NCBI RefSeq assembly: GCF_004010195.1
Contig: NC_057719.1
Span: 15,422,107 to 15,454,317, forward strand
DNA length: 32,211 bases
Source: Chiloscyllium plagiosum
Taxonomy: Eukaryota
Reading direction: 5' to 3'
Shown piece after piece: positions 1-23,694 of this stretch. Positions within the stretch are counted from its first letter, which is position 1. Every line of letters begins with the position of its first letter. The notes below the pieces were generated by a model that was given only the letters and a program-made list of their open reading frames with translations, was not told where the DNA came from and did no database searches. Position numbers and translations under genes: made by a program.

Positions 1-1124
1 CACTGCCTGCCATTCTGAAATGGAGCCGTTTATCACTACTCTTTGTTTCCTGTCAGCCAACCAACTTTCAATTCAAGTTAGTACTTTGCCCCCAATACCA
101 TGCGCCCTAATTTTACTCACTAACCTCCTGTGTGGGACTTTATCAAAAGCTTTCTGAAAGTCCAGGTACACTACATCTACTGGATCTCCCTCGTCCATCT
201 TCAGAGTTACATCCTCAAAACATTCCAGAAGATTAGTCAAGCATGATTTTCCCTTCATAAATCCATGCTGACTCTGACCTATCCTGTTAGTACTATCCAG
301 ATGTGTCATAATTTCATCCTTTTATAATAGACTCCAGCATCTTTCCCAACACTGAGGTCAGACTAACTAGTCTATAACTTCCTGCTTTCTCTCTCCCACC
401 CTTCTATAAAAAGTGGTATAACATTAGCCACCCTCCAATCCGCAGGAACTGATCCCGAATCTATCAAAGTCTGGAAAATAGTCACCAACGCATCCACGAT
501 TTCTCGAGCCACCTCCTTCAGTGCCCTGGGATTTAGACCATCAGGCCCCGGGGACTTATCAACCTTCAGACCTAACAGTCTCTCCAACACCAATTCCTGG
601 CAAATATAAATTCGCTTAAGTTCACGTCCTTCAGCCACTGTTACCTCAGGGAGATTGCTTGTGTCTTCCCCAGTGAACACAGATCTGAAGTACCAATTCA
701 ATTCTTCTGCCATTTCTTTGTTCCCCGTAATCCCCTGTTTCTGTCTTCAAGGGCCCAATTTTAGTCTTAACCATTTTTTTGCCTTGCACATACTTAAAAA
801 AGCTTTTACTATCCTCCTTTATATTTTTGGCCAGTTTACCTTCGTACCTCATTTTTTCTCTGCGTATTTCCTTCTTAGTAATCCTCTGTTGTTCTTTAAA
901 AGCTTTCCAGTCCTCCATTTTCCCCCTTTTCTTTGCTATGTTATACTTTTTCTCTTTTAACTTTATATGTTTCTTAACTTCCCTCGTCAGCCACGGCATC
1001 TCATGCCTCCTCCTAGGATCTTTCTTCCTTTTTGGAATGAACAGATCCTGCATCATACACAGAAATATCTGCCGTTGTTCCTCCACTGTCATCCCTGCTA
1101 AGGTATTGCACCATTGAACTTTGG
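1..1124 (-). mobile_element. CR1 LINE ORF2 fragment (RT region), 5'-truncated, continues beyond the window start
   Basis: Frameshifted ORFs give KSPGPDGL, WRVANVIPLF, QHGFMKGKSCLTNL and VYLDFQKAFDKVPH. Confidence 0.93.
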
Positions 1125-3102: not shown

Positions 3103-3374
3103 ATAGAATGCCTATAGTGCAGAAAGATGCAATTCAGCTCATCAAGTCTGCACTGACCCCCCACCCAGACTCACCCTATCCCCATAACCTGACATTTACC
3201 ACAGCTCATCACCTAGCCCGCACATCCCTGGACACGATGGGACAATTTAGCAAGGCCATTCCACCTAACCTGCACATCTTTGGACTATGGGAAGAAACCA
3301 GATTACCCAACGTGCAAACTCCACACAGAGAGCTACGCAAGGCTGGAATTGAACCCAGGTTTCTGGTGCTGTGA
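3103..3374 (-). mobile_element. HE1-like tRNA-derived V-SINE, partial
   Basis: B box GGTTCAATTCC on the minus strand at 3345-3355, V-domain TGTGTGGAGTTTGCAC, and a CR1-like tail. Aligns by eye to 10933-11256. Confidence 0.82.
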
Positions 3375-5386: not shown

Positions 5387-8300
5387 TTAAACGGCACGGA
5401 AAGAGACCCTTGGTTCAACTCTACATGCCGACCAAGTTTTCCAAACTAAATTATCCCATTTGCCTGCACTTTGCCTATATTCTTCTAAACCTTTCTTATT
5501 CATGTCCAAATGTCTCTTAAATGTTGTAACAAAATCTATCACTTAGTCTGATGGTTCATTCCACGTATGAACCATCATCAGTGTGAAAAAGTAGCCCTGC
5601 AGCTCCCTTTTTAAATGTTTCTCCTCTCATCTTAAAATTAAGCCTTCTAGTTTTGAATTCCCAAACCCTAGAGAAAAGACATTTGCTATTCACCTTATCT
5701 ATGTCCCTCATGATGCTAAAAACCTCTGTCAGGTCACCCCTCAATGTCCTACACTCCAGTGAAAAAATCTTATCTAGACTCTCCATATAACGTAAACCCT
5801 CCAGCTCCAGTAGCATCCTTGTAAATCTTTTCTGCATCTCTCCAATTGAATTTTCCTTCGCATAGCAACCAAAACTGTATACAGTACTTCAAAAGTGGCC
5901 TCACAAGTATCATGTACAAACGCAACATCATGTACTAACTGTTAAACTCAATGTTCTGAGCAATGAAGGCAAATGTTCCAAATGCCTCCTTTATCACTGT
6001 GTCTGCTCGTGACACAACTTTCAATGAACAATGTACCTGAACCGCTAGGTCTCTCTTCTGCAACACTCCCCAGTGCCCGATCATATTCTGTGCAGGTCCT
6101 GTTCTTGTTTGTCTTACCAAAATGCAACACCTTGCATTTATCTAAATTAAACTCCATCTGCCACTCCTTGAGACATTGGCTCTATTGGTCAAAATCTCTG
6201 TAATCAGATATACTGTATATTCCTCACTGTCTACTGTACCACCAATTTTGGTGTCATCCGCAAATTTACTAAACATGCTTCCTGTACTCTCATCCAAATT
6301 AGTCATGTAAATGACAAACAACAGTGGAGCCAGCACCCTTCCTTGCGGAACACTGCTGGTCACAGGCCTCCAGTCTGAAAAATAATGCTCCACCACCACC
6401 AACAACTGTCTCCCATCTGCAAGCCAATTTTGTATCCAGTTGGCAAGCTCTCTCTAAATCCCATGTAATCAAACTTTACTAATCAGTCTACTATGTCTTA
6501 TTAAAGTAATTCCCTCTCTAATGGCACTGTGGGTCAACACACAGCAGGTGGACTGGAGCAGTTCAAGAAGCAGCTCACTACCATCTTCTCAAGGTCAACT
6601 AGGGATAGGCAATAAATGCTGGCCAGCCAACAGTGCCCACATCCCAAATGAATAAATTTAAAAATAAAAGGTCCATGTAGACAATGTCTACCACTCTGCC
6701 CTTATCAATTTTCTTGGTCAGATCCTCAATAAAAGTCAATCAAGTTGGTGAGACACGATCTCCCATGCACAAAGCCATGCTAACTATCCCTAATCAGTCT
6801 TTGTCTCTCCAAATGCATGTAAATTCTGTCTCTCAGAATCCCATCCAACTTAGTCACCACTGATGTCAGACTCACTGGTGTACAGTTCTTAGACTTTGTT
6901 TGCAACCTTTCTTAAATAAAGGCACAACTTTAGCCTCTAGTCTGCTGTCACCTCACCCATAGCTATAAATGGTACAAATATCTCTGATTGAGGCCTTGCA
7001 ATTTTTTCCCAGCTTCCCACAATGTCCTAGCATACACTAGATCAGGTCCTGGAGATTTATCTGCCTTTATCCTTTTTAAGACCTCCAACACTAACTCATT
7101 TGTTATGCAGACTGTTTTGAAGACATCAGTATTTATTTCTCTCAGTACTTTTTCCACAGTAAGTACTGAAGCAAAACATTTGTTCAGTATGTCTCCTATC
7201 TCTTGTGGTTCCAAACATAGATGACCTCTTTGAGCTTTCAGGTGCCCATTCTCTCCCCACTTGCTCTTTTTCCCTTGCTCTATTTGTAAAATCTCTTCAG
7301 ATTATCTTTTACCATATCTGCCAAAGCAATCTCATATCCCCTTTCTTGCCCTCCTGATTTCCCTCTTAAGAATGACCCTATTGCCTGTATACTCTACAAG
7401 AGATTTAGTTGATCCCTGTTGTCTGTACCTGATGTGCTTTTCCAGTGCCACACTTTTTGACTCTGCTCTCCAGCATCTGCAGTCCTCACTTTCTCCACTT
7501 GCCATAGCCTCAATATGTCTATTCATCCATTGTTCCCTACTCCTACCAGTTTTATCCTTCACTCTAACAGGAACATGCTCCCTCTGAACTCCTGTTATCT
7601 CACTTTTGAAAGTCTCCCACTTGCCAGTTGTCCCTTACCTGCAAACAGTCTATCCCTATTGGCCTTACCCCAATTTAGAATTTTAATTTTTATACAAGGC
7701 TTCCATAATTATTTTGAAACTAATAGAATTATGATTACTGGTCCCAAAGTGCTCCCCAACTAATACTTCAGTCACTTGCCCTATATTACCACACTCTTGA
7801 CTCTTATTTCCCAAGAAATGATCAAGTTTTGCTCCTTCTGTAATAGATATATCTGTATATTGGTAAAAAGATTTTCTTGAACGCATTTAACAAATTTCTC
7901 CCCATTTGAGCCTTTAATACTATGGCAGCCCCACTTTGTTTTTGAAAAGTTAAAATCTCCTGCTATTACAACCATGTTAATATTACACATATCTAAGATC
8001 TTGTTACGTATTTGCTGCTCAGTTTCCTGCTGACTTTGGGGGGGTTCCTATAGTACAATCCCATTAAAGTAATCATCCCCTTCTTATTTTTTAAGTTCCA
8101 CCCATATTACTTCACTGGACAGTCCCCCAAGAATATTCTTTCTCAGTGCAGCAGTATGCTTTCTCTAATCAAAAGCACCACTCTCCCTTCTCTCTTGCCT
8201 CCCTTTCTATTGTATAATATCTAAACCCCAGATTATTGAGCTGCCAGTCCTGACCCTCGCTAGGCCATGTTCCACTAATAGGTACAATATCCCGGTCCCA

Positions 8301-8747: not shown

Positions 8748-9077
8748 ATTGTCCAGCAGGGCAGATGTGTCAGCAAGTTGCTGAAAAGTGCAGAAATATT
8801 AAGAGTTTTCAACATAAAGGTGTACAGAAAATATTTGTTTTCTATAATATTCTGATGAGTTTCAGGGAAATTCAGATTTGCTGATATATTGGTCAGTAAA
8901 GTTGTCTCACGGGTGATCAGTATTCGGTTTCCAGACTAATCTTCACATATGTTTTTAAATTGGGGGGAGGGGGGAGCTAGTTTTTGAATTAATTAGAAAT
9001 GAAGAAACTTTATAGGCTGTTTATGAAATACTAAATATGAAGTTGGGACTAAATGTAATGGGTTTCTTTTTCTTCAG

Positions 9078-9985
9078 TCACTGCCTCTGGAGATGCAGAT
9101 GAGGCACTTAGAAATGCAGCAGCAACAGTTTATTCCTCTGTATCAAGAATGGCAGCGACAGTTCCAGATCTGGAAGGCACAGCTCCAAGCATATCCGAAT
9201 AAAGATCAGCTCCAACAGTATGAAACTCAGTGGAACCAGTGGCAAGAGCAAATGATATCAACAAATCATCATTTCCAGGAAAGAATGGATGCTCTCAGAA
9301 ATGTTCAACAGCAGTACATGAACAGTCAATCCCAGAGTTATTTGGGAAATACATCAAGCAGTCTGATGTCTCAGGCTGCACCAATGCCACCCATGGGATT
9401 GCCTCCGACACCACCAATTGCTGGTTCTTCTGTAGTTTCAACACAAGGAACAGCAACCTCACCAGCAGACCCAGCTTCTTCAGAACCAGAAAGCTCACCT
9501 GTTTCCAGGGCACTTCCGGTGGTGTCTCAGGCCCCACCATCATTATCTCAAACTCCTTTGCCAGTGACTCAGGCACCTCCACCAATGACAATGGTACCCC
9601 CACCAATAACTGTGCCACCTCCACCATTGACTATGCCACCTCCGCTTATGAATATACCTCCTCCACCAATAAATCTGGCCCCTCCGCCGGTCTCTCTGGC
9701 CCCTCCGCCGGTCTCTCTGGCCCCTCCGCCGGTCTCTCTGGCCCCTCCACTGGTGACTCAGGCCCCACTGCCAGTTTCCCAAGGTCTGCCATCAGCATAT
9801 CAGGCTGCTACCCCAGTTTCTCAGAACGCTACAGCTATCACAGAACAGAAGAGACCTTTAATTCCTGCACCACATGCTGAAGTAAAAGCATCATCTTCAA
9901 GTTCAAATATTCATAATAGTCGATTTGCGACATCTGGGATTAAGTCATCTGAGCTATTGCAAACTGGAGACCACAGGATGTCAAG
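9078..9985 (+). CDS. ylpm1: YLPM1 internal exon B (SLPLEMQMRHLEMQQQQF...YPNKDQLQQYETQW..., then Pro-rich)
   Basis: Acceptor tttcttttt cttcAG at 9076-9077, donor AG|GTAATT after 9985; 908 nt, phase 0-2. Strong match to recalled human MQLRHYEMQQQQFQHLYQEWEREFQLWEEQLHSYPHKDQLQEYEKQW. Confidence 0.95.
9501..9836 (+). repeat. Coding 21-bp (7-aa) repeat, 16 units, consensus VSxAPPP
   Basis: Heptads run from VSRALPV to VSQNATA (336 nt = 16x21), with a near-perfect core (tctggcccctccgccggtctc)x3 at about 9674-9750. Confidence 0.85.
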
Positions 9986-10932
9986 GTAATTATAAGTCCA
10001 TACAAATGTCTGTACAAACTAAGAGTCTTTATTCAATCAGGTGTAGTGCTTATGTTTGGCTTTGTCCAGTTCCTAGATTGACACAGTTACAAGCTAATAA
10101 ATCAATTTTCCTCTACTCTTAATGCTTGGTTTTGTTTCTGCTGATGAAATCAGTGACCTACTGAAGGTGTATGCCAGTTGTGATCTGTACATTGCTGCAG
10201 TTCATTGGATTTAAGAGCTGTGAATGTGTATTAAGTTTCCACTGTAATTAACTTTGTGACCTTTGCTGTGGGTCAGAATGAAAACCAGGTCTATCCTTAA
10301 TTATTGTGACTAAATGCATCTTTCATTATTCTCTGTTTTTCATGTTAGAGTTGAGTTCTGGACAAATGTCTACCTTGAGACCTTAAAGTGGCAAGTGTAG
10401 CTTTTTGAGGGACAGATAACTAACCAACATTGAATATAACCTAGTTTTTATTATATTTGCAAATGAATTGTCAATATGACCATTAAATTATAAAATTCTG
10501 GTTTTAATTCCTTTATTAAATCTTGTTTGCGTTTATGAAAAGCAGGTTCTTTTGGTTCAGTAAATTTATTTTGGGGAGATTATTTTGGAGATGTTGCCTT
10601 ATATTTTACAATTTGTAATAGGGAGGGCCAAAAACATCAATGTCCTCCTTTAAAAAGAAAATGTTTAGAATGGTGCATACTAAAGCTGTAGCCTGTGTTT
10701 CAAGCAGTGCAGTAAAGATTTTTATACTAAATATATTCCAGTGAATCAAAATAAGCTATTTATTAATGAATCAGCTGAAAAATGAACTGAAAAATAACTT
10801 TTAAACTAACTGTCTAGCATGCTGTGAAGTATCAAAATTAAATGATAGATGAGCTAGGATTAGTTAAATACTGTGTGTGACTTGTGAGCAGAATTTGATG
10901 TATTTTTTCCCACAAAAAGCAAAATAGACATT

Positions 10933-11256
10933 GACATAGACATAGAATCCCTACAGTGTGGAAGCAGGCCCTTCAGCCCAAGTCCACAACAACCTTCCAA
11001 AGAGTAACCAACCAGAGCCATTCCCCTACTATCCCATGTTTAACCCTGACTAATGCACCTAATCTGCACATCCCTGAACACACTGAGCAATTTAGCAAGG
11101 CCAATTCATCTAGCCTGCATGTATTTGGATTGGATGGTGGGAGGAAATCCACAGGGAGAATGTACAAACTCCACATAGTCGCCCGAGGCAGGAATCGAAC
11201 CTGGGTCCCTGGCACTGTGAGGCAGCAGTGCTAGCCACTGAGCCACTGTGCTGCCC
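10933..11256 (-). mobile_element. Near full-length HE1-like V-SINE
   Basis: Minus strand has 5' GGGCAGCACAG, A box TGGCTCAGTGG (11235-11245), B box GGTTCGATTCC (11191-11201), a V-domain remnant and tail CCACACTGTAGGGATTCTATGTCTATGTC. Confidence 0.9.
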
Positions 11257-11346
11257 AGACTTCATTGGTATTTGCCAGGAAATTGTTAAAAACAAACATG
11301 AGTTTAAATCATTTGTTAAAGTATTTTATATTTGGAACCCCTCCAG

Positions 11347-14300
11347 GTTCGATGGACCACATGGCAGAGGAATGCAAAAATTTGAAGGACCAGGAGCAAA
11401 GGGAAGTTTTCATTCACGTTTTGATTTAAGGTGCTCTCGATTTCAAGGCCACCAATTTGAAGTATCCCAGACAAGATTCGAAGGACAGGCTTCAGGCCAG
11501 CATGTTGAGGGTGAGACTGCAAACCAGCACACTGAGAATAAGCCTGCAGTTCCAGTTGTTGAGAGTGAACTTGTAAGTCAGTTTGTCAAGGATTCAGCTA
11601 TGGGTCAGCAAGTTGATGATGAAGTCCCGAGTCACCACCATGAAGCTGAGGCTTTGAGTCTGGTTCCCAGTCTTGAAAAGCAGCCTCCTGGTAATCGTTT
11701 TGAAAAGCAGCCTCCAGGCAATCGTTTTGAAAAGCAGCCTCCTGGCAGTTGCATTGAGAAACAGAGTTCTGGTACTCCCATTGAAAATAAGGCTCCCAAT
11801 AATCGATTTGAGAAACTCGATCCTGGTGATCTTACTGAGAAAGAGGGTCAAGAGAAGGAGGGCCTGAGCAGTCGCATTGAGAAGCAGTGCCCTGGTACTG
11901 GCCCTGAGAAGGAGGGTCCCGGCAATCGCCCTGAGAAGGAGGGTCCCAGCAGCCATCTTGAGAAGGGGAATCCCAGCAGCCACCTTGAGAAGGGGGTGGA
12001 CAGTCAAGTTGAGAAGGAAGGCCTGGGTCCAGGTGGTCATGTCAAAACGCAGGACCTGGCAACTTGTGTTGAGAAACAAGATAGTCGCTTTGAGGAGCAG
12101 ATGCCTGGTATTCGCCTAGATGAACAGGGTTCAGATAATTCCCTTACGAAGCAGAGTCCCAGTAATTGCTGTGAGGTGCAGAGCCATAGCAACAGTAATC
12201 ACACTGAAAACCAGGATGCAGATAGCTGCTTCGAGAAGCAGGTTACTGGTATTGGTGTTGAGCCACAAGGATCAGTTAATCGTTTTGATAAACCGAGTCC
12301 AAGTAATCGCATTGAGGCCCAGGATGGTCTCATTGACTCGCAAGACCTCAGCAATCGTTTTGTGAGCCAGGGACGAGCAAATCAAAATGAAGATCAGATT
12401 CTTGAAGGCCTGGACAGCAATCGCACTGATGGCCCAGGGAGCAATCGTTCTGATGGCCCGGGCAGCAATCGCTGTGATGGCCCTGGGAGCAATCGCTTTG
12501 ACGGCCGGGGGAGCAATCGCTTTGACGGCCCGGGGAGTAAGCGCTTTGACGGCCCAGGCAGCAATCGCTTTGACGGCCCGGGGAGTAAGCGCTTTGACGG
12601 CCCGGGGAGCAATCGCTTTGACGGCCCGGGGAGCAATCGCTTTGCCGGCCCGGGGAACAATCGCTTTGACGGCCCGGGGAGCAATCGCTTTGACGGCCCG
12701 GGGAGCAATCGCTTTGACGGCCCGGGGAGCAATCGCTTTGACGGCCCGGGGAGCAATCGCTTTGACGACCCGGGGAACAATCGCTTTGACGGCCCGGGGA
12801 ACAATCGCTTTGACGGCCCGGGGAACAATCGCTTTGACGACCCGGGGAACAGTCGCTTTGACGGCCCGGGGAGCAATCGTTTTGACGGCCCGGGGAGCAA
12901 TCGCTTTGACGGCCCGGGGAGCAATCGCTTTGACGGCCCGGGGAGCAATCGCTTTGCCGGCCCGGGGAACAATCGCTTTGACGGCCCGGGGAGCAATCGC
13001 TTTGACGGCCCGGGGAGCAATCGCTTTGACGGCCCGGGGAGCAATCGCTTTGACGGCCCGGGGAGCAATCGCTTTGACGGCCCGGGGAGCAATCGCTTTG
13101 ACGGCCCGGGGAGCAATCGCTTTGACGGCCCGGGGAGCAACCGCTTTGACGGCCAGGGGAGCAACCGCTTTGACGGCCAGGGGAGCAACCGCTTTGACGG
13201 CCAGGGGAGCAATCGCTTTGACGGCCCGGGGAGCAAACGCTTTGATGGCCAAGGGAGCAGTCGCTTTGATAGTGCAGGGCACAGGGGTCACTTTGAGGGC
13301 CCAGGCCCAGGAGGTTGTTTTGACGGTCCAGGCCCCGAGGGTCACTTTGAGGGGCCTAGACCTGGGGTGCCCTTTGATGGTCCAGGATCCAGGGGCCGCT
13401 TTGAGGGGCCTGGGCTGGGGAATCGCTTTGAGAGCCAGGGATCCAGGAATCACTTTGAGGGTCAGGGTCCCGAGAGATACTTTGAGGGCCAGGGACCTGG
13501 GAATCGCTTTGGGGGCCAGGGTCCCAGGGATCGGTTTGGGGGGCAGGGACCGGGAGGCTGCTTTGAAGGCCAGGGCCCTGGGGGTCGCTTTGGGAGCCAG
13601 GGTCCCGGAGATCACTTTGGGGGCCAGGGTCCCGGAGATCGCTTTGGGGGCCAGGGACCCGGAGATCGCTTTGGGGGCCAGGGACCAGGAGGCTGCTTTG
13701 AGGGTCAGGACCCTGGGGGTCACTTTGAGGGCCATGGTCCTGGAGGCCAGTTTGAGGGCCCAGGCCGTGGGGGTCGTTTTGAGGGCCCAGGCCGCGGGGG
13801 TCGTTTTGAGGGCCCAGGTCGCGGGGGCCGCTTTGACAGCCCTGGCCGCGGGGGTCGCTTTGAGGGCCAGGGAGCATTCAAGGGTCGCTTTGATGGCCAG
13901 GGGGCCTCTGGGGGTCGCTTTGACAGTCATGGGGGCCCTGGAGATCATTTTGAGGGTCAGGGACCTGGAGGCAATTTTGAGGGTCAGGGCCCAGTTGATG
14001 CTTTTGAAGGCCAGGGACCTGGGGGTCGTTTTGAGGGCCAGAGCCGGGGAGGTCGCTTTGATGGCCAGGGCCGGGGAGGTCGCTTTGATGGCCAGGGCCG
14101 AGGGGGTCATATTGAGGGCCGGGGCCGCGGGGGTCGCTTTGAGGGCCAGGGCCGAGGGGGTCGTTATGAAGGCCCTGGCCGGGGAGGTCGCTTTGATGGC
14201 CAGGGCCGGGGGGGTCGCTTTGATGGCCAAGGCCGGGGAGGTCGCTTTGAGGGTCAGGGCCGGGGAGGTCATTTTGAGGGCAGGGGTTCAAGTGTTCATT

Positions 14301-16149
14301 TTGAAGGCCAAGGTCCTGGAGGGCATTTTGAGGGGCCAAGTCAGGGAAGACACTTTGAAGAACAGGGTCAAATGACCCGTTTTGAAGGCCAGGAACGTGG
14401 CGGTCGCTTTGATAACCTGCATCCAACGGCTCATTTTGAAGAGCACTCAGCTAGTCATGGGCAACATGTTGATGGTTATAAAACAACATCGCATTTTGAC
14501 AGCCAGGGACAGTCTTTTGAAGGTCCTGGTGCTTCTGAGTGGTTTGAGCATTCAGGTCAAGGGCAGCACATTGAAAGCCAGGGACAAGGGCAACGTCTTG
14601 AAGCCTCTGGTGCAAAGTTTCATAGTTCACGGTTTGACAGCCCAAAGGGACCAAGATTAACTGGGCCCCGTGGGCATTTCCCCACTGGACCATGTGTATC
14701 TGGTTCAAGACCCAAAGGCCTTCAAGTCAGAACTGAACAAATGGGACAAAGTTTAAAAGGGCCCCAGTCTTCTCATCCATCATTAGAACAAGGTGAGGAT
14801 CAAACAAAACGAGCTGGAGTCCAGGAGCAAGAGACAGTAGCTGTATGCAAAGATGTAAAACAAAATGCTGATAAAGTATCACCAGCTTCAGTGGAACATA
14901 AAGATGAAAAAAATCTTTCCCATACACCATTGGCTGCTACAAGTCATAAAAATTCAGATTCATCTGGAACTAAAGATTTGACACAAAGTGTTGATTCATC
15001 TAAATCACATGAAATTCAGAAGAAAGCAGACAATTCTGAGTTAGCAACTTCTTCAGTTATTGTCACTCAGGACCAAAAAGATCCAGTTGTGCAAAATGTA
15101 CCTAAAACACTGCCTTCCAATTCATCAGCTGCCGCAAAGGCTGTATCTGAGAAATCAGAGCCCAAAAATGTAGATACCAACAAAAGGTTTGAATCTGTAC
15201 CATTGCATCCAAATAATGATCGAGCAAAAGGCCTAGAGCATCGGCAACACATTGGCAAAGATTATTCCTCTATCCGTAAAAATGATGTTGACAGTAATAA
15301 AGATGTTCCAGAAATAAGACCATTGCTACATCACAGGATAGACATTCAGGGACATTGGCATCAGGAGGAAGGTAGATCTTTGGATGATCATTTCTCTGGA
15401 CCAAGGGGAGGTCCAGCTTTTGAAAGAGAGAGAACTCTATCTTGGGAAAGGGGAAATTGGACTGACACTGGCTCAGATTTTTGGGATGAAAGAGATCCAT
15501 TTAGAAGAGAGGAGTGCTCACTTCTTCGGCGACCACCTCTGCCTCATGAAATTTTAGACAGAAGGGAAATTCGAGCTCCACATCAAATTGAAGGGTTTGA
15601 CAGAGGCTTTGACAGAGAATTTGACAGGAGTGGAAGGTCACGTGAACATGGTTTTAACAGAGACAATGAACATGATAGAGAATACTTCCACAGACGAGAA
15701 GAATGGGACCTTCGTGGTTCTGGAAGGGACTTTTCTCCTTTACACCCACGGCCAGATAGATGGAGAGAGGAGCAGTGGAGGGATGAAAAGGAACGGAGCT
15801 ACCATCATGACCAAGAACGGGAAATGTGGGGTCAGGACTATGCAGAGAGGCCAGACTGGAGAAGGGATGAACGTGATTTTCCTCCAGAAAGGCTTGGATG
15901 GCAGAGAGAACAGATGGATGAAAGAAGATATCCAGACACAGACAACAGGCGGTTACCTTTTGACAGTTTGCGTGAGATGCCATCACAGACTGGTCCTGTT
16001 CGTGCACCTGTTCTACCTGAACAGCCACCAGTGCCTTTCTCTGAAAAACCTATGGTAGACCAAACACCCGGCGGACAAAATATTGTTGCATTGTCAGAAA
16101 GAGAACATGAAATCATCTTAAAAGCAGCGCAAGAATTAAAATTATTACG
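11347..16149 (+). CDS. ylpm1: YLPM1 giant internal exon C (RFDGP... repeats ... LSEREHEIILKAAQELKLLR)
   Basis: Acceptor ctccAG at 11345-11346; the split codon AG+G gives Arg then FDGP, as in human PRGPRFDGP. Donor CG|GTAAGT after 16149; 4,803 nt, phase 2-2. Ends in the conserved HEIILKAAQELK motif. Confidence 0.95.
11675..12400 (+). repeat. Degenerate coding ~27-bp (9-aa) repeat, EKQPPGNRF / EKEGPSSHL type
   Basis: EKQPPGNRF x2, EKQPPGSCI, EKEGPGNRP, EKEGPSSHL, EKGNPSSHL and further decayed units are visible in the translation. Confidence 0.75.
12407..13270 (+). repeat. Coding 24-bp minisatellite, 36 units of ggcccggggagcaatcgctttgac (GPGSNRFD)
   Basis: 864 nt = 36x24, counted in both DNA and protein. 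Core units are near-identical; edge units are degenerate. Confidence 0.97.
13271..14440 (+). repeat. Coding 27-bp repeat, 43 units of GQG(P/R)GGRF(E/D) (40 nonamers and 3 decamers; 14 RGG)
   Basis: 1,170 nt = 40x27 + 3x30; units run from SAGHRGHFE to NLHPTAHFE. Confidence 0.92.
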
Positions 16150-16650
16150 GTAAGTGACTTATTTTTGTATCGCCAATAGATTTCTCGAGAATATTGTTAT
16201 ATAATGTCGTCAGGTAATAGAAACCTTTGAGAAAAGGTCATGCTCTTAGCCCGTTCCCCATCACAACTGAGACAATGTAGTTCCGAGCCACTATGGTTTT
16301 AATCCATTTTAATACTCCTGAGTGAATGAGTGAGGGAAGAAGAAAGCTCTTGTTAGTAAATGTGCAGATGTGAAGATCTATTAATATACTCCATGTTTGC
16401 TGTTATTGTAATTAATTAGCCTCGTGATGTTTACTGTACTTCCTATGCTTACACATTGAGAGAATACTTGATAACTAATTTGGTAACCACATTCCAGCAA
16501 AAATAGCATCTTGAGAAGACAGAAAATCTTGGGTGGGGAACATACATTGGTTAAGAGAATTACTTAACAAACAAGTAATCAAGTTCTCATCTTGTCTTCT
16601 ACCAAATCAATTTTTGAGCTGTTTTCTGTAATTTCATAAATTCACCTAAA

Positions 16651-18250
16651 GTCATAGAGGTATACAGATTGCAAACGCACCCTTCAGTCCAACTCGTCCA
16701 TGCCAACCAGATATCCAAAATTAATCTAGTCCCATTTGCCATTACTTGGCCCATATCCCTCTTAATCCTTCCTATTCATATACCAATTCAGGTGCCTTTT
16801 ATGTGTTGTCATTGTACCAGCCTCCACCAATTCCTCTGGCAGCTCTTTCCATAAGCATACCACCCTCTGCATGAAAAAGTTGCCCCTTAGGTCTCTTTTA
16901 TATCTTTCCCCTCTCACCTTAAACCTCTGCCCCCTAGTTCTGGACTCACGCACCCCAGCGAAAATACTTTGTCTATTTACTCTATCCATGCCCCTCATGA
17001 TTTTATAAACTCTATAAGGTCACCCTTCAGCCTAGGATGCTCCAGGAAAAACAGCCCCAGTCTATCTAGTCTCTCCCTATAGGTGAAATCCTCCAACCCT
17101 GGCAAAATCCTTGTAAATCGATTCAAGTTTCACAACATTCGTCCGATAGGAAGGAGACCAGAATTGCACACAGTATTTTAAAATTGGCCAAATCAATGTC
17201 CTGTACAGCCTCGACATGACCTCCCAACTGGTATACTCAATGCACTGACCAATAATGGAAAGCATACCACATGCCACCTTCACTATCCTATCTACCTGCA
17301 ACTCCACTTACGAGGAACTCTGAACTTGCACTCCAAGGTCTCTTTGTTCAGCAATACTCCCTAGGACCTTACCATTAAGTGTATAAGTCCTGCTCTGACT
17401 TGTCTTTCCAAAATGCAGCACCTCACATTTATCTAAATTAAACTCCGTCTGCCATTCCTCGGCTCATTGGCCCATTGAATCAAGATCCCATTGTACTCTG
17501 AGGTTACCTCCTTCGCTGTCCACTCATCTGCAAACTTACGAACTATACCGCCTATGTTCACATCCAAATAATTTATAAATGACAATGAATCCAGCACTAA
17601 TCCTTGTGGCACACCACTGGTAATAGACCTCCAGTCTGAAAAGCAACCCTCCACCACCATCTTTTGTCTTCTACCTTCGAGCCAGTTCTGTATCCAAATG
17701 GATAGTTCTCCCTGTATTCCGTGAGATCGAACCTTGCTAGCCAGTCTCCCATGGTGAACCTCGTGGAACGCCTTACGTCTTCAAGATCACACACCACTCT
17801 GCCCTGATCAATCATCTTCATTACACCTTCAAAAAACTCAATCATGATCAAACCATCTTCAAAAAACTCAGTTAGTGAGACATGATTTCCGCCCCACAAA
17901 GCCTTGTTGACTATCCCTAAACAGTCCTTGCCTTTCCAAATACATGTAAATCCTGTCCCTCAGGATTCCTTCCAACAGTTTGCCATCACCAATAATATGC
18001 TCACTGGTCTATAGTTTCTTGGCTTTTCCTTACTACCTTTCTTAAATAGTGGCACCACGTTAGCCAACGTCCAGTTTTCGGGCACCTCACCTGTGGCTAT
18101 CGATGGTACACAAAACTCAGCAAAGGGCCCAGCAATCATTTCCCTAGTTTCCCATACATTTCTGGGGAACACCTGATGTGTCCTGTGGATGTATCCATCT
18201 TTGTGTTTTAAGGCATCCAGCCCCACCACCTCTGTAATTTTTCAAGATGT
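16651..18250 (-). mobile_element. CR1 LINE, 5'-truncated (RT to 3' UTR)
   Basis: ORFs give ANVVPLFKKGSKEKPRNYRPVS, ITSGVPQGLVL, LKYCVQFWSP and DLRGNFFMQRVV. The 3' tail is of the same family as that at 5381. Confidence 0.92.
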
Positions 18251-18781
18251 GGAGCAATATCAAATATTGTTTTCAAGTTGAAGTTAATTATTTAAATTGT
18301 TTATTTTGTTCATTATTTTAGTCGTTCCCCCAAATAATTTCCCTTTGTAGTTTAGGGTTTGTTTCAACACAAACTAGTACAAGGAAAATCTGATACTTTG
18401 AGTAATCAAAATAAATTTTTAAAAGATGTTTTATGATGCAAGACACTAAACTTTATTTACTTAGAGCTTTTTATCAAGTGCAACATTAGCATTGTTCTTT
18501 TGTTACTGGAGTAGAAGCCTGTACTGATGATCTGGGGATATTTGAATGGCTCCAGTGGTTGGAAAATTTTAACTGAATGAATTAAATAATGTACATAAAG
18601 CTAGTATCAGCAATATGACCACACAATTACCTGATGAATATAAAATGTGACTGATTCATGAATGTCTTTTCGAAAAAGAAATCTGTTGTTAGGCATGGCT
18701 CATATGTGACTCCAGCTCCATATCAATTTTGTTGACTCTAAACTGTCTTTGAAAATGGTCCAACAAGCCACGAAGTTATAT

Positions 18782-18970
18782 CAGGAGAATCGACGTTTCG
18801 GGCATAAGCCCTTCTTCAGGAAGAAGGGCTTATGAAGGGCTTCTGAAGAAGGGCTTATGCCCGAAACGTCGATTTTCCTGTTCCCTGGATGCTTCCTGAC
18901 CTGCTGCGCTGTTCCAGCAACACATTTTCAGCTCTGATCTCCAGCATCTGCAGACCTCACTTTCTCCATT
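18782..18970 (+). mobile_element. Penelope-like terminal-repeat fragment with 5' inversion and minimal hammerhead motif
   Basis: 40-bp inverted repeat (18782-18821 / 18841-18880) and direct repeat aagttatatca at 18773-18783 and 18971-18981. Core is CTGAAGA-A-GGGCttatGCCC-GAAACGTC. Confidence 0.82.
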
Positions 18971-19223
18971 AAGTTATATCAAGCTACTTTGAAAAGTTAT
19001 TTAAGATGATAAAACTGGACAGGTCACCTAACATTATCCTAAGTGTCAGACAAACAGCACCCATCTTCAGTTAATCCTACAAAGCTCCCCTCATAACATG
19101 TTGGAATTTGTGCCAACATTGGCAGATGAGTCCAGCAGCAACCTGATGAAGATTCTAAGAGTTTGACTTTCAGCTATCTTTTAGACCCTAACATTATCAT
19201 TTCCTGGAATGTGCTATCCCAAT

Positions 19224-19387
19224 GTTAGGTGAATTGGCCATGTTAAATTGCCCGTAGTGTTAGGTGGATTAGTCAGGGGTAAATGTAGGGGAGTGGGTCG
19301 GGGTGGGTTACTCTTCGGAGGGTCAGTGTGGACTTGTTGGGCCGAAGGGCCTGGTTCCACACTGTAGGGAATCTAATCTAATCTAAT
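19224..19387 (+). mobile_element. HE1-like V-SINE 3' half, sense orientation
   Basis: Reverse-complement match to 10940-11115; ends ccacactgtaggg followed by (aatct)n. Confidence 0.85.
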
Positions 19388-21082
19388 GGCAGGTGGCTGC
19401 TGAGGATTATGCTCTTGAGAGGGAGTGACCCTGGGAGTCCTCAACATAGACGTCATGCAGTACAGAGTCAATGGCAGCAGTCCAACTTTGAGAAAGGAAA
19501 TGTCTTATTCGTTATCACCAACTGCACTCCCCATTAAGTGCAGAGTCAGTATAGTCCTCTACTCCAAATCATTTAGTAGAACCACTGAAGGTGGCAAGAG
19601 CACTGAATATGCTCTAAGTGTAGGCGTCAATGCCCAACCCCAAGAATAAGCTCTTTAGCTTTACTACTGGCCAAGATGGCCTAATCATGAAAGGTATAGT
19701 TGCCAGACTTACCCTGCGGCAATGGCTTATAGAATAAATAATTACAAGGGGAAAGGTTTACTTGACCCCAGTCTTGCTGATCTGTCACAGATATTATTAT
19801 TTCAATGCTAGTAGAAGTGACCACTTCAAGTTTCTTGTGATATGTAATATCTCACCGTTTTAGTCTAAAACTACCACTACACAACATGAAGTACGTTCAG
19901 AATAGGCCTAGCAGTTCGATGCGGTGCTATGAGGTCATGAGAATTGTGCACCTCCAGAATCTAACCTCATTCCCAGGCAAGACCGTCATTCTGCCATTAC
20001 CATGGCTCCCAAAGATGGTCCCTAGTTATTCAGATATGTTAGCATACCAGCAACAATACAATACTTACGAAAAGATGAGGTGTCATCCTGGTGGAACTGA
20101 CAACATACGACCATGTGTAAACAAGTAATGAATGCTAAGCAAGCCCATTATCAGATTGAAGATCTCCATTCATGTTGCATCCAGTTATGACTGGTGATGG
20201 TGGACAATTAAATAACTGACAGGAGGAAAAGGCTCTATAAATGCTCACATCTCAATAATGGCAGAGTCTAGTCCATAACTCAGAAATGCTGAGTAGATGA
20301 TCCAGTTCTGCCTGCTCCAAAGGTAATCAGGATCACTCATGCCCACCTTCAGCTGATTCACTTCACTTGTGATAGTGAGAAATGATTGAATACATTAAGC
20401 ACAGGAAAGCCATTTGATCCTAACAGCATCCTGCCACAATATTCCAATGCCTACCCATGGTTCTTTACCCTAATTAAACTGTACATTATGGGTACAACAT
20501 TGGCATCTCTCTGACAAAGTGAAAAATATTGGTTTAGGCCTTGCCAACAAAAAGCAGAACATATTCATTCTGGTTGATTACCACCACACCGATCAGTAGT
20601 CCATCTCAAAGTGAGCAACATGATGGCTGTTGTCATCAAAAGTATTTTAAATGACAATTATTCACCAGCAATTTATGTACTGCTACTCAGTTTACCTTCT
20701 GACTGGACCACTTAGCTCCAATCCACAGGTGTAAACATGAACAAAATCACTAAATTCTAGAGGTAGCATCAAGATTGCATATGACTAAATGTGGCAAATT
20801 TGAAGTCAGTGGCAATTGGAGGGATGGCTATCTAGCACATAGGAAAATGTAGTTATTTGAGGCCAATCATCTCAGTTACAGGGTGCTTTTCCAGATAGTC
20901 TCTGAGTAGTATCACAGGCCCAGTCACCTTCAACTGCTTCATAAATGTTCATCCTTCCATCATACGGTTAGATGTTGAGATTGTTTAACACAGTTCAGTT
21001 GAATTCCCAGCGCCTCAGATATTGGAGCAGGCATGCATAAGTACAGCAACATCCAGTTTTGGGCTAATGAATGGCAAATCAA

Positions 21083-21630
21083 ATTGAATTGAATTAGTAT
21101 TATTGTCACAGGTACTAAAATGTGTACAGTGAAAAGTTTATAAGTTGCCACTCACAATGTCATCTTAGGTACAAAGGTACTGAGGTGCAATCCTTAATTA
21201 CAGAACAAAAAAATGAAAACAAAAGTTACATTACAGCTATGCACACAAATAACTAAAGGCCAGAAAAATAAGAAGCAAAGTTAAAAAGACAAATATCACT
21301 GTCTCTCTCCAAAGGCTGTCCGCAGCAGATTAACTTGGGGGCCACCACGACCGTACTAGGCCACTGGCCATTGGTCACTGGTGTCCCCATTTCGGGTTTC
21401 TGCTGCCATGCTCCATTGCCGCTGCTCCTGCATCAGGCCACTGATGCCACCCTCTGCACTAGGCTGCTGATCATTTGTGACCCCACTTCGGGTTGCTGTT
21501 GTCCCTTCTTGGAGTCCTGGTTGCTTCAGATGCTGGGGTCTTCACCAACCCTGTTTCAGAGGCCAAGGCTGGGTATCTGAAGCCAAGAGAAGGGAGGAAA
21601 GTACTCTGCTACCACCTTACCTGAAGTTCA
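21083..21630 (-). mobile_element. Unclassified non-autonomous retroelement (~550 bp)
   Basis: Interrupts the LINE RT after WANEWQ. Minus-strand tail is gtgacaataatact(aattc)n, the body is GC-rich, and there is a possible aaatcaa duplication (21076-21082 / 21633-21639). Confidence 0.5.
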
Positions 21631-21790
21631 ATAAATCAATCAATCACTAACTCCAGCTGAAGAGAGTCTAACTACATCCCCTTGACATTTAACATCATTG
21701 CAGTTATTGAGTTAAAGGGGAAATTCCTTGGTATCCACTGTTGTACAAAAAGTTACCTAGAGCAGGCACACACCAACGACGTAATGGATT

Positions 21791-22000
21791 GCACCATATT
21801 GAATTGACAGATTCAGACAGATTTAAAAGATCTTGGTCAACAAGGTAGATTTTGAGGAATGCTTTCAGGAAAGGCAGAGTAATTTAGCATGTTAATTCTA
21901 AACACTCACACGCAGGTAGCTGAAAGTGTAGCTACCAGTAATGGAGCTATAGAAATAAGGATAAGCAGAGGATAGCATTATAGGAACACAGAGGCCTGAG
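21791..22000. repeat. Local duplicate of 23043-23060 joined to 24036-24225
   Basis: An exact 18-mer gcaccatattgaattgac is followed by about 190 bp of colinear direct repeat beginning attcagacag. Confidence 0.85.
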
Positions 22001-22906
22001 CTTGAGACTGCACACTCACTCTCAGTATCAACAAGGCTCATCAGGAGTCTGACACAGTGTTCCGCACTTTGCTGGATAAGTGCAGGTTCAATAACATTTC
22101 CAAAACGTGACATCATTCAGGAGAGAACAGCTTGATTCATATCTCACCTATTGTCATAAATGCTCACTACCCTCAGCCCTGCCAATAGTGTATTGAATAC
22201 CATTTAGGAAATGCAGTGTAACAATTCACTGAGGCTTCTGATGACATCTTCTGAATCCAAATCTTCTGCCTAAAACGGCAGCATTCCCACAGGGACACCA
22301 TGAACATGGATTTTACCCTGAATTTGCTACTTTTAAAAATCAGGTTTCTAGCAGCTTGACAAAGAAGTTATATAAACAGAATGCTTAGAAACTAGGAAGA
22401 CTGAGGTTTATTTGAATAGGTGGATAGAGAGAGTTTTGAAGGGAAGAGAAAGATATGAGTTGAAAGACAGGAAAAGAGCAGTGCCTAAGCTACTAAAGAC
22501 TGAAAACTAACAAGTATTTACCCTCTTTTGTATTCCACTTTATTTGTCTTTGATTTTTTCAAACAATTGATTGGATATTTGAACTTCCCTTAAACAGTAA
22601 CATGACTTGTATCATGAACATTGAAAGTAAGATAATCTCAGACCAGATGCATCTAAGAGAAAAATTGTGAGGAAATGTATTCAGCAATCAAAAGATATGT
22701 TTATCTGCTGTTCTTAGTGTACCTGAAACTGTGTAGGTGTTTTCATACAATCATGTTGCATGGACATTCTCGTATTCAAGGATCAAGCATTGAGTTAGTC
22801 ATACTGGATTATGATCATCTATTTTTGCAGATTCTGTCAGTAATATCATTGCTTCCTTCACCAGATTTATGCATTGTTTTAACTTTAGTTGCTTGTGACA
22901 TTTCAG

Positions 22907-23021
22907 TGAGCTACAGGAGATTGAGCGAGTACCTCTTCTACCTAGCAAAACAGATTCAGCAGGAATTACTCCTGTAATTCAAGATTATCAGAATAGTAAA
23001 ACTGGTCAAGACTTCTATAAG
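22907..23021 (+). CDS. ylpm1: YLPM1 internal exon D (R-ELQEIERVPLLPSKTDSAGITPVIQDYQNSKTGQDFYK)
   Basis: Acceptor tttcAG at 22905-22906, strong donor AAG|GTAAGA. 115 nt, phase 2-0, stop-free, and it bridges the phase-2 end of exon C to the phase-0 start of exon E. Little sequence similarity to the human segment. Confidence 0.75.
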
Positions 23022-23694
23022 GTAAGAAACTAGAACTAGATAGCACCATATTGAATTGACTAAACAAATAAGTTTTTCTGCACCATATTGGGAAATTGAG
23101 TTGTGTTAATTTTGTCATCTTCAGTAACCACGCAGATACTGTTCATAGACAGCTACACAAGTCTATCTTTGAAGTGCAGATTATATTCTATATATTGTGA
23201 CGCATTCTATGTTCTCTTTATACCTTGGTGATCTCTTTTCATGACTATGAAAGACTTGATGATCTCTTAGCATGCTGTTCTATATTCATTTATCCAATGA
23301 AAAATGAAGGGTCAATCATTTTGAATTCATCAGCCTTGGTAACAATGGTGGGTTCCTAGACCTGAAGGATGTTAATAAACTAACTGAACTTCCACAATTA
23401 TCTGATAGCTTTTGTGTCAACATTTTTTTGGTGCCATGCTATAAACAACCAAAATCAACAGCAAATTTAGCAGTAGAATTTGATCAAATAATTTGGTAGC
23501 TGCCAATTCAGTAACAGTCTTGAACGATAACCTCTCCACTGTTTTCCTACTTTGTATCATAGCAAGACAGTTTATATGATCTACCTTGGTCAAGGGTCTG
23601 TAAGCAATGTATTCTATTATGTGATTCTGATATTAGAAATGATGAGCGATTGTCCTCTGTCCGCCTTGTCACCTTCTGCTTATTGCTGTTGTAG

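Follow-up and report, generated by a model that had tools for sequence, protein, structure and literature searches.

The giant YLPM1 exon of Chiloscyllium plagiosum: a probably old nonamer array next to a probably young octamer array in a putative Arg/Phe multivalent module

A single exon that encodes about 1,100 residues of Gly/Arg/Phe-rich repeats raises the question to which gene these repeats belong, whether they are present in mRNA, how old they are and what they may do for the protein. All coordinates given here are positions in the window, i.e. the whole 32,211-nt stretch of Chiloscyllium plagiosum NC_057719.1 (15,422,107 to 15,454,317) that was analysed. On similarity grounds the host gene of the repeats is YLPM1 (ZAP3), as the first-pass annotation had named it. 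In protein searches and tblastn the named best matches of the window protein were ylpm1 of four cartilaginous fish, Hemitrygon, Amblyraja, Rhinoraja and Callorhinchus. The ray YLPM1 (P0001) was found by tblastn in eight collinear pieces on the + strand (residues 250-2234), and the similarity to named YLPM1 proteins, used here as the mark of an orthologue, is collinear over eight exons. The codons of the eight exons supported by tblastn add up to about 2,224, which fits the earlier count of about 2,216. The window stops at the equivalent of ray residue 2234, short of the C-terminal P-loop kinase-like domain (Pfam AAA_33/KTI12; residues 2283-2418 of the ray protein). The gene itself is ordinary, and an Rfam scan of the window gave no match.

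All repeat tiers are contained within one giant central exon (11347-16149, + strand; P0001 residues 658-1988 by tblastn), the bounds of which were read from the sequence as an AG at 11345-11346 and a GT at 16150-16151. The 4,803 nt between them agree with the 4.8 kb proposed before, and the exon forms part of an open frame of 1,679 codons from stop to stop (11114-16153, + strand). The upstream exon (9072-9985, + strand; P0001 residues 310-648 by tblastn) encodes a Q-rich stretch and then a Pro-rich heptad run, with 21-nt repeats at 9574-9766 (Tandem Repeats Finder), and is followed by a donor GT at 9986-9987. The Arg codon of the first RFDG is composed of its last two bases and the G at 11347. 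The translated exon start (11347-11671, + strand) comprises about seven irregular RF(D/E)/KFEG units and a hydrophilic spacer; such units are common to every jawed-vertebrate orthologue looked at, and the RFDGPxGRG start also occurs in rays, birds, alligator, gar and bowfin. Behind the repeats a decayed array tail (14438-14638, + strand; register parse) ends at a conserved RFD-S/G-PKGPR anchor, which is common to window, batoids and chimaera. The non-repeat part of the exon (14639-16149, + strand), with the conserved ALSEREHEIILKAAQELK motif at its end, is 60-66% identical to batoids and 49% to chimaera in alignment A1. The exon end ALS-E/Q-R-E/Q-HEIILKAAQELK at 16080-16149 has invariant columns in this alignment and was likewise found in the orthologues examined. 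The next exon (22907-23021, + strand), preceded by an AG at 22905-22906, was also found by tblastn.

Between the anchors shared with other cartilaginous fish the window encodes 1,095 aa with 92 aromatic-acid units. RF[DE] occurs 58 times in frame (57-58), with a spacing of 8 residues and then of 9. Tier 1 (11672-12406, + strand; Tandem Repeats Finder and register) consists of three clean EKQPPGNRF nonamers and then decayed units, in total 245 aa with a net charge of -14. Tandem Repeats Finder reported a period of 27 with 2.8 copies and 93% matches at 11673-11747 and two weaker 27-nt rows at 11852-11997. The decayed EKQPPGNRF array proposed in the first-pass annotation thus stands as a looser stretch, but only its first three units are clean and the rest to 12406 is degenerate, with scattered NRF and EK/EQ words. 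A similar EKQ...NRF-poor stretch exists in all three batoids. Tier 2 (12407-13270, + strand; in-frame parse) is composed of 36 24-nt units encoding GPGSNRFD (Tandem Repeats Finder at 12402-13269: period 24, 36.2 copies, 93% matches, zero indels). The exact octamer is encoded by 17 of the 36 units; the core units are identical in DNA and the edge units most diverged. Tier 2 showed no period of a higher order, just a slight bump at 13 units. Tier 3 (13271-14437, + strand; register parse) contains 43 units of the (E/D)G(Q/P)G(P/R)GG(R/H)F type, namely 39 nonamers, three decamers and one octamer, and four further decayed units reach to about 14572 (Tandem Repeats Finder at 13260-14280: period 27, 37.5 copies, 73% matches). 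Both unit numbers, 36 and 43 in an intact frame, are as first described. The composition is 25% G, 10% R, 9% P and 9% F at a net charge of about 0, and ILVM account for less than 2% of tiers 2 and 3. Since the Gly/Arg/Phe/acid repeats, about 1,100 residues long, are nearly free of aliphatic residues, the domain is very probably intrinsically disordered.

Presence in mRNA was examined with read contigs over 13000-23100, i.e. the end of tier 2, the whole of tier 3 and the downstream splice, the RNA nature of which was judged from spliced contigs and empty intron bins and not from run records. In contigs of all four runs a GT..AG joint connects 16149 with 22907 (shown as 16148->22906, 'cut +1'), and one contig per run extends from the non-repeat exon part across the splice into the next exon. 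Depth in the non-repeat intron bins was 0 for runs X1 and X15 and ranged from 0 to 1.3 for X6. Because spliced contigs occur together with near-empty intron bins, the contigs behave as mRNA. RNA-type contigs from three organisms (runs X1, X15 and X6) tile 13197-16148; in all three organisms they overlap across tier 3, and they extend into the 3' end of tier 2 as far as 13197/13207. This places tier 3 and the last part of tier 2 in mRNA. For tier 1 and the tier 2 core with its identical units (about 12658-13000), the support for presence in mRNA comes from an exon-word share of 0.90 in run X1 and from one-sided contigs.

The age of the array was approached with 120 listed YLPM1 proteins, comprising three batoids, a chimaera and 116 non-chondrichthyan proteins, with no shark-labelled entry. 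Between the shared anchors the stingray has 841 aa and 70 units, the two skates 735 aa with 61 units and 700 aa with 53 units, and the chimaera 370 aa with 36 units. At least ten RF(D/E) are found in 48 of the 120 proteins. Teleosts have a median of 12.5 and RFD arrays of up to 26, and the counts are 1-4 in mammals and 4-5 in sauropsids, in line with the few motifs assumed earlier for the human side. GRGGRF occurs nine times in the window, five, three and three times in the batoids and not at all in the other 116 proteins. The tier 2 words GSNRF and SNRFD are absent from all 120 listed proteins, a set without a shark-labelled orthologue; single look-alike units (GPGVSNRFE, GPGSRFE) are carried by batoids at the matching place. 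Measured against this reference set, the octamer block appears to be the only lineage-specific, recent expansion.

It is very improbable that assembly has miscounted the copies of the perfect 24-nt core, or that the repeats are removed by splicing (exitron) and untranslated. Short-read contigs do break at the identical units of the tier 2 core, and since six of six reading frames are open across the repeats, openness alone is weak proof of coding there. However, the frame runs on into conserved YLPM1 sequence at both ends of the array, whose length is thus divisible by three. Contigs from all four runs span 13000-13336 and run into the array, and organism C carries diverged octamers of its own on a diverged 162-nt contig at 13003-13154. 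Furthermore, none of the joints listed, with 561 further ones beyond the listing, lies inside the examined 13000-16148, which agrees with the first-pass interpretation, the modal tier 2 unit is devoid of any GT dinucleotide, and the batoid gene models include their YLPM1 arrays. The earlier reading, in which the whole three-tier domain of about 920 aa is an innovation of this lineage that arose from a handful of ancestral motifs and converged with PCF11, is improbable as well. It would be consistent with the 1-5 RF(D/E) of tetrapod YLPM1, with the largest count being that of the window (57-58 versus no more than 31 in any of the 120 proteins listed) and with the PCF11 orthologue P0134 (41 RF[DE]), which was matched by the window repeats at E 3e-25. 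Against it, tiers 1 and 3 are common to batoids in the same order, at 64-77% of the window's length between identical anchors, and the chimaera as well as 44 of the 116 non-chondrichthyan proteins have at least ten RF(D/E). Given the arrays of batoids, chimaera (36 units) and teleosts, comparable arrays do occur elsewhere, and the assumption that other orthologues lack them has to be given up for cartilaginous fish and in part for ray-finned fish (up to 26). Lineage specificity can be kept for the octamer block (0 of 120 proteins) but not for tiers 1 and 3, which batoids share with 53-70 units. A shark-specific invention of the whole domain should not be carried forward.

Unlikely, too, is a neutral runaway expansion, according to which the arrays, chiefly tier 2, are products of slippage that a disordered linker tolerates, serving for spacing only and drifting in size. 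The DNA of tier 2 is near-homogeneous, with 13 of 36 units equal to the modal unit and a mean identity of 90%; tier 2 is so young that selection is unreadable from it, and this tier may be neutral. In addition, other lineages have arrays of a very different kind in this exon, such as RPEGVQQDRWG about 27 times in Bombina, DRRFPPDLE about 30 times in the coelacanth, GRGMGRMDG in birds and GGPPPLPGQPRA in Xenopus, so that the sequence itself is not conserved across vertebrates. Sections of PMC6581911 likewise describe a disordered region completely changed between fly and human, the fly counterpart having a quite different repeat. What speaks against neutrality comes mainly from tier 3. Compared with organism C, a relative diverged by 2-4%, this tier is collinear without gaps or indels over about 1.1 kb at a synonymous divergence of about 8%; the 37 listed changes divide into 22 synonymous and 15 non-synonymous ones, a pN/pS of about 0.22 from an incomplete variant list (15 changes listed in 13210-13660 versus 20 counted in the contig). 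Although the mean DNA identity between units is 67%, R, F, G and the acid stay in place in 21-37 of 39 units, Gly with mixed codons. The Phe codon is TTT in 37 of 37 repeat units, which could reflect ongoing homogenisation rather than pure protein-level constraint. Finally, the arrays that occupy this exon in other lineages once more combine Arg with one aromatic and one acidic residue (RW..E, RRF..D), which suggests that the composition of the array is constrained.

The probable reading, in our judgement, is that the giant YLPM1 exon carries a coding array of old nonamers and young octamers that forms a putative Arg/Phe multivalent module. Its starting point would have been the short RF(D/E)G run at the exon start, common to jawed vertebrates, and this motif family would have been enlarged via tandem duplication of 24- and 27-nt units, by replication slippage or unequal exchange. 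The nonamer array of tier 3 and the decayed tier 1 would go back to an expansion early in cartilaginous fish and the 36-unit octamer block to a recent, lineage-restricted one; tier 3 would now be retained through purifying selection on the protein. The product may be a multivalent array in which Arg and Phe recur at regular intervals within a flexible Gly/Pro spacer and the arginines are probably methylated. It might bind RNA and/or readers of RG/methyl-arginine and could aid partitioning into nuclear RNA-processing bodies. By analogy of composition only, its role may be the same general one as that of the Arg-rich disordered region of human YLPM1. According to parts of PMC6581911, that region binds RNA in a PNK assay, the portion tested being an RE/RD/RG stretch and not an RF(D/E) array. 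In PMC7069091, YLPM1 and PCF11 both appear on a list of proteins that carry over 10 methylated arginines, and YLPM1 is also named among those with at least five clustered ones.

This module offers a natural size series of a single disordered repeat domain, from 36 units in the chimaera via 53-61 in skates and 70 in the stingray to 92 in the window, and within one exon an old array under purifying selection adjoins a very young one. It is therefore a good test bed for the way in which the number of repeats in Arg/Phe "sticker" domains is set. A wider proposal is doubtful, namely that nuclear RNA-processing proteins have repeatedly and independently evolved RF(D/E)-Gly/Pro arrays as a docking module with one shared reader, which was replaced in tetrapod YLPM1 by other Arg-aromatic-acid arrays. 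Three hosts of RF(D/E) arrays were seen, YLPM1 (fishes), PCF11 (vertebrates) and P0127; if the proposal were true, no natural example would exceed elasmobranch YLPM1 with its roughly 92 units, and the partner shared by such arrays might be a reader of methyl-arginine or of Arg-Phe.

Look-alikes were found in a protein search with tiers 2 and 3, which gave 613 matches at E<=0.001; most of the 20 examined among the 150 listed are unrelated low-complexity repeats. Informative among these, besides PCF11 P0134, are the chimaera YLPM1 (P0004), P0124, which has no Pfam family, and the CID and CCCH zinc-finger protein P0127 with 16 GPPPSRFD units. The Pfam model of the PCF11 repeats, PF20844, matched neither the whole giant exon nor tiers 1-3; the first 47 exon residues reached 13.9 bits (E 0.067), below the gathering cut-off of 43 bits, and PCF11 P0134 as positive control 106 bits. 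CID, Clp1-binding and zinc-finger Pfam domains were not detected in the giant exon, nor were CID and Clp1-interaction domains in full-length YLPM1 of batoids and chimaera. In the literature on YLPM1, supplements aside, no description of RF(D/E) arrays was found.

Among the known systems the YLPM1 proteins of Hemitrygon akajei, Amblyraja radiata and Rhinoraja longicauda (P0001-P0003, predicted) are closest to the window. Gene and giant exon are alike, and the parts follow in the same order: RFDGPxGRG start, EKQ-type decayed stretch, nonamer array, anchor and conserved tail. They share the GxGxGGRF(E/D) nonamers with a GQGRGGRF run and the RFDGPKGPR anchor, but have 53-70 units instead of 92 and no GPGSNRFD block, and Hemitrygon has its own homogenised GPGPGGRFD run. 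Teleost YLPM1 (e.g. Genypterus P0065 with QPGQRFDGPPRFD double units) agrees with the window in gene, exon start and RF(D) register, with RFD arrays of up to 26 consecutive units. In contrast, its spacer is proline-rich instead of glycine-rich, its period is 6-7 (13 as pair), and its arrays expanded straight from the exon-start units and are free of RGG.

Outside YLPM1, PCF11 carries FEGP/RFEGP repeats with a unit of about 13 residues (sections of Schafer et al. 2018, PMC6239180), which supports the analogy drawn by the first-pass annotation. The same sections report that the arginines of these repeats are dimethylated and the repeats required for cleavage in vitro, and state that similar repeats were not found in other proteins. 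This statement needs qualifying in view of the look-alikes in fish YLPM1 and in the CID-CCCH protein, which could help to identify the binding partner of the PCF11 repeats. The PCF11 repeats (PF20844) resemble those of the window as tandem RF(D/E)G units with a Gly/Pro spacer in a nuclear RNA-processing protein; their unit of about 13 aa differs from those of 8 (tier 2) and 9 (tiers 1 and 3), and methylated arginines are a feature of the PCF11 repeats themselves and, for YLPM1, come from human data.

Tier 3 contains 36% Gly, 14 RGG, 18 RG and 32 GR (tier 2: 0 RGG and 1 RG). An RGG/RG box, reportedly after Thandapani et al. in 2013, is a cluster of RGG/RG motifs with 0-4 residues between them. 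By this spacing rule no di- or tri-RGG was found in the tiers, because the RGG motifs of tier 3 stand 9 residues apart (11 pairs exactly so from start to start, none in tier 2). Tier 3 is like the RGG/RG-box regions of RNA-binding proteins in its RGG/RG/GR content, interspersed Phe and Gly-richness, but unlike them its units each bear an acidic residue, at a net charge of 0.

The repeats lie in a forward-strand open frame of 1,679 codons (11114-16153) with 58 RF[DE] motifs. Most of it is a giant YLPM1 exon of 4,803 nt (11347-16149, + strand), which has an AG acceptor (11345-6) before it and a GT donor (16150-1) after it; the preceding exon stops at 9985, and the Arg of the first RFDG is split across the intron, its codon taking the last two bases of that exon. 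Used as a protein query, the frame's non-repeat end retrieved five proteins, each annotated as YLPM1, at identities of 70 % (stingray), 67-68 % (two skates), 54 % (chimaera) and 34 % (a bird). Across the non-repeat part the window is 60-66 % identical to the batoids (stingray and skates) and 49 % to the chimaera, and the batoids are 74-91 % identical to each other; these values place the window's source among elasmobranchs but apart from the batoids compared, probably in a shark. In addition, tblastn with the stingray protein placed eight collinear + strand exons in the window (stingray residues 250-2234), together about 2,224 codons, close to the 2,216 or so counted in the first-pass annotation.

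Three tiers are distinguished within the exon, all on the + strand, and frame translation, Tandem Repeats Finder and an in-frame parse bear out the unit counts and coordinates first assigned to them. Tier 1 (11672-12406) begins with three clean EKQPPGNRF units and is decayed thereafter; Tandem Repeats Finder reports here a short clean 27-nt array (11673-11747) and two weak 27-nt rows (11852-11997). Tier 2 (12407-13270) parses into 36 octamers, 17 of them exactly GPGSNRFD, and is seen in the DNA as a 24-nt repeat spanning 12402-13269 (36.2 copies, 93 % matches, 0 indels); 13 of its 36 units match the modal unit exactly, and the first and last units diverge most. Tier 3 (13271-14437) consists of 43 units (39 nonamers, three decamers and one octamer), after which four decayed units follow; the 27-nt array at 13260-14280 has 37.5 copies and 73 % matches. 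G+C content is 0.58-0.65 across 12001-14000 versus 0.33-0.48 in most of the window. Eight of the nine G-quadruplex-like motifs on the window's + strand (four G3+ runs, loops <=12) fall at 13392-14286 in tier 3, and just one is found there with loops <=7.

Several other repeats surround the domain. The upstream exon at 9574-9766 carries 21-nt repeats encoding Pro-rich heptads of the APPPVSL type (4-5 copies, matches up to 93 %). Similar translated words (..NVQTPH..) occur at 11114-11260, in the frame 5' of the acceptor, and at 3209-3374 in an earlier intron, which suggests, from sequence likeness, copies of one short interspersed element. Decayed LINE pieces lie on the minus strand in YLPM1 introns at 73-321, 6142-6453 and 7781-8047, with matches to RVT_1 (reverse transcriptase; 30.8 and 31.6 bits) and Exo_endo_phos_2 (endonuclease; 32 bits). 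Intron stretches within 16370-19400 reach a contig depth of 10^3 to 10^6 in every sequencing run and are therefore very abundant interspersed repeats; furthermore, 17341-17659 repeats 6050-6398 at 74-76 % identity.

Read-derived contigs from four runs and three coded organisms (A, B and C) were placed on 13000-23100. Runs X1, X15 and X6 behave as RNA, since depth in non-repeat intron bins is 0 in X1 and X15 and 0 to 1.3 in X6; X18 thinly covers the intron as well. Each of the four runs has one contig that is spliced, with GT..AG borders, from the end of the giant exon onto the exon after it (16149->22907, printed as 16148->22906 with 'cut +1'). Because overlapping contigs tile from 13197/13207 (organisms A and B) or 13210 (organism C) to 16148 and splice onward, tier 3 and the last tier-2 units are present in spliced mRNA. 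Splicing-out of the repeats, named earlier as the outcome that would count against the domain, was looked for over 13000-16148, and no internal joint appeared among the 15 joints listed (561 more were beyond the listing), a stretch which covers tier 3 and the last tier-2 units. For the identical tier-2 core and all of tier 1, mRNA support consists of a single figure, the share of exon words found in X1 (0.90). At 13433 the window has A (Ser, in the unit ESQGSRNHF) and all four runs from the three organisms have G (Gly, the consensus residue); the window's base reflects a private allele or else a mistake in the assembly.

Organism C, a relative at 2-4 % divergence from the window, aligns collinearly through tier 3 with no gap. 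Over 13246-14350, 37 listed changes comprise 22 synonymous and 15 non-synonymous ones (pS 0.078, pN 0.017, pN/pS 0.22), from a list which is incomplete, the first contig having 15 changes listed against 20 counted. Tier-3 units share a mean DNA identity of 67 %; among 39 of them Phe is retained in 37, position 8 is R or H in 31, and each of the four Gly positions is kept in 25-34, with mixed Gly codons and Phe always TTT. Tier 2, at 90 % mean unit identity, is too uniform for selection to be read.

The conserved C-terminal region, used as query, retrieved 291 YLPM1 proteins; 120 of these, none labelled as shark, were listed and compared. Measured between the common anchors RFDGPxG and RFD(G/S)PKG, the domain spans 1,095 aa with 92 aromatic-acid units in the window, 841 aa (70) in the stingray, 735 aa (61) in Rhinoraja, 700 aa (53) in Amblyraja and 370 aa (36) in the chimaera. 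RF[DE] counts, taken over the whole protein except for the window (exon only), are 57 in the window, 21-31 in batoids, 19 in the chimaera, a median of 12.5 (maximum 26) in 72 teleosts, 1-8 in other ray-finned fish, 4-5 in sauropsids, 1-3 in frogs, 2 in the coelacanth and 1-4 in mammals, the last agreeing with the few motifs ascribed to human YLPM1 in the first-pass annotation. Among the 120 listed, 48 proteins have at least 10, six at least 20 and one at least 30. The RF(D/E) array is thus an old fish feature, largest in the window. The first-pass annotation had taken the whole domain as lineage-specific. This holds for the 36-unit octamer block, whose words GSNRF and SNRFD occur in none of the 120 listed proteins (none shark-labelled) and in whose place batoids have single look-alike units (GPGVSNRFE, GPGSRFE), but not for the rest: batoids have the same order of parts, the GQGRGGRF(E/D) run included, and the chimaera has 36 aromatic-acid units.

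The giant exon is a hot spot of array turnover. The same exon carries RPEGVQQDRWG about 27 times plus ERRGGLLAAPA in Bombina, GGPPPLPGQPRA in Xenopus, about 30 DRRFPPDLE units near the exon end in the coelacanth, and GRGMGRMDG and SRER runs in birds. Frog YLPM1 reaches 2,443-3,065 aa owing to its own tandem arrays in this exon (frog and coelacanth entries P0048, P0040, P0007).

The 922-residue domain contains 25 % G, 10 % R, 9 % P and 9 % F at a net charge near 0, and I, L, V and M together make up less than 2 % of tiers 2 and 3; tier 3 has 14 RGG and 32 GR motifs and tier 2 none. According to published work, an Arg-rich disordered region of human YLPM1 binds RNA (PMC6581911), YLPM1 and PCF11 both appear in a list of proteins carrying >10 methylated arginines and in a list of those where five or more form a cluster (PMC7069091), and the FEGP repeats of PCF11 are dimethylated and essential to cleavage in vitro (PMC6239180). 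Because of this composition and these reports, we favour a putative disordered, multivalent, methylatable Arg/Phe module which would bind RNA or readers.

A phmmer search with tiers 2 and 3 against 1.84 billion representatives gave 613 matches at E<=0.001, of which 150 were listed and 20 of those examined. Most of the 20 are unrelated low-complexity proteins; three are informative. Pfam identifies P0134, which has 41 RF[DE], as a PCF11 orthologue, and in P0127 16 GPPPSRFD units occur together with a CID domain and a CCCH finger. P0124 (1,125 aa), in which no Pfam family was found, has about 25 GRGGRFDS-type nonamers before a Q/N/Y/T-rich tail and is the closest look-alike of tier 3 outside YLPM1 among the matches listed (55 % across the matched stretch). 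The analogy to PCF11 drawn at first reading stands as resemblance, tiers 2 and 3 having found the PCF11 orthologue, but not as membership in PF20844, the Pfam model of the PCF11 RFEGP repeats: tiers 1-3 gave no match to it, and the exon start alone scores, reaching 13.9 bits where the cut-off is 43. The domain is an expanded example, within the known gene YLPM1, of an already known type of repeat domain, and by analogy may work like the PCF11 repeats.
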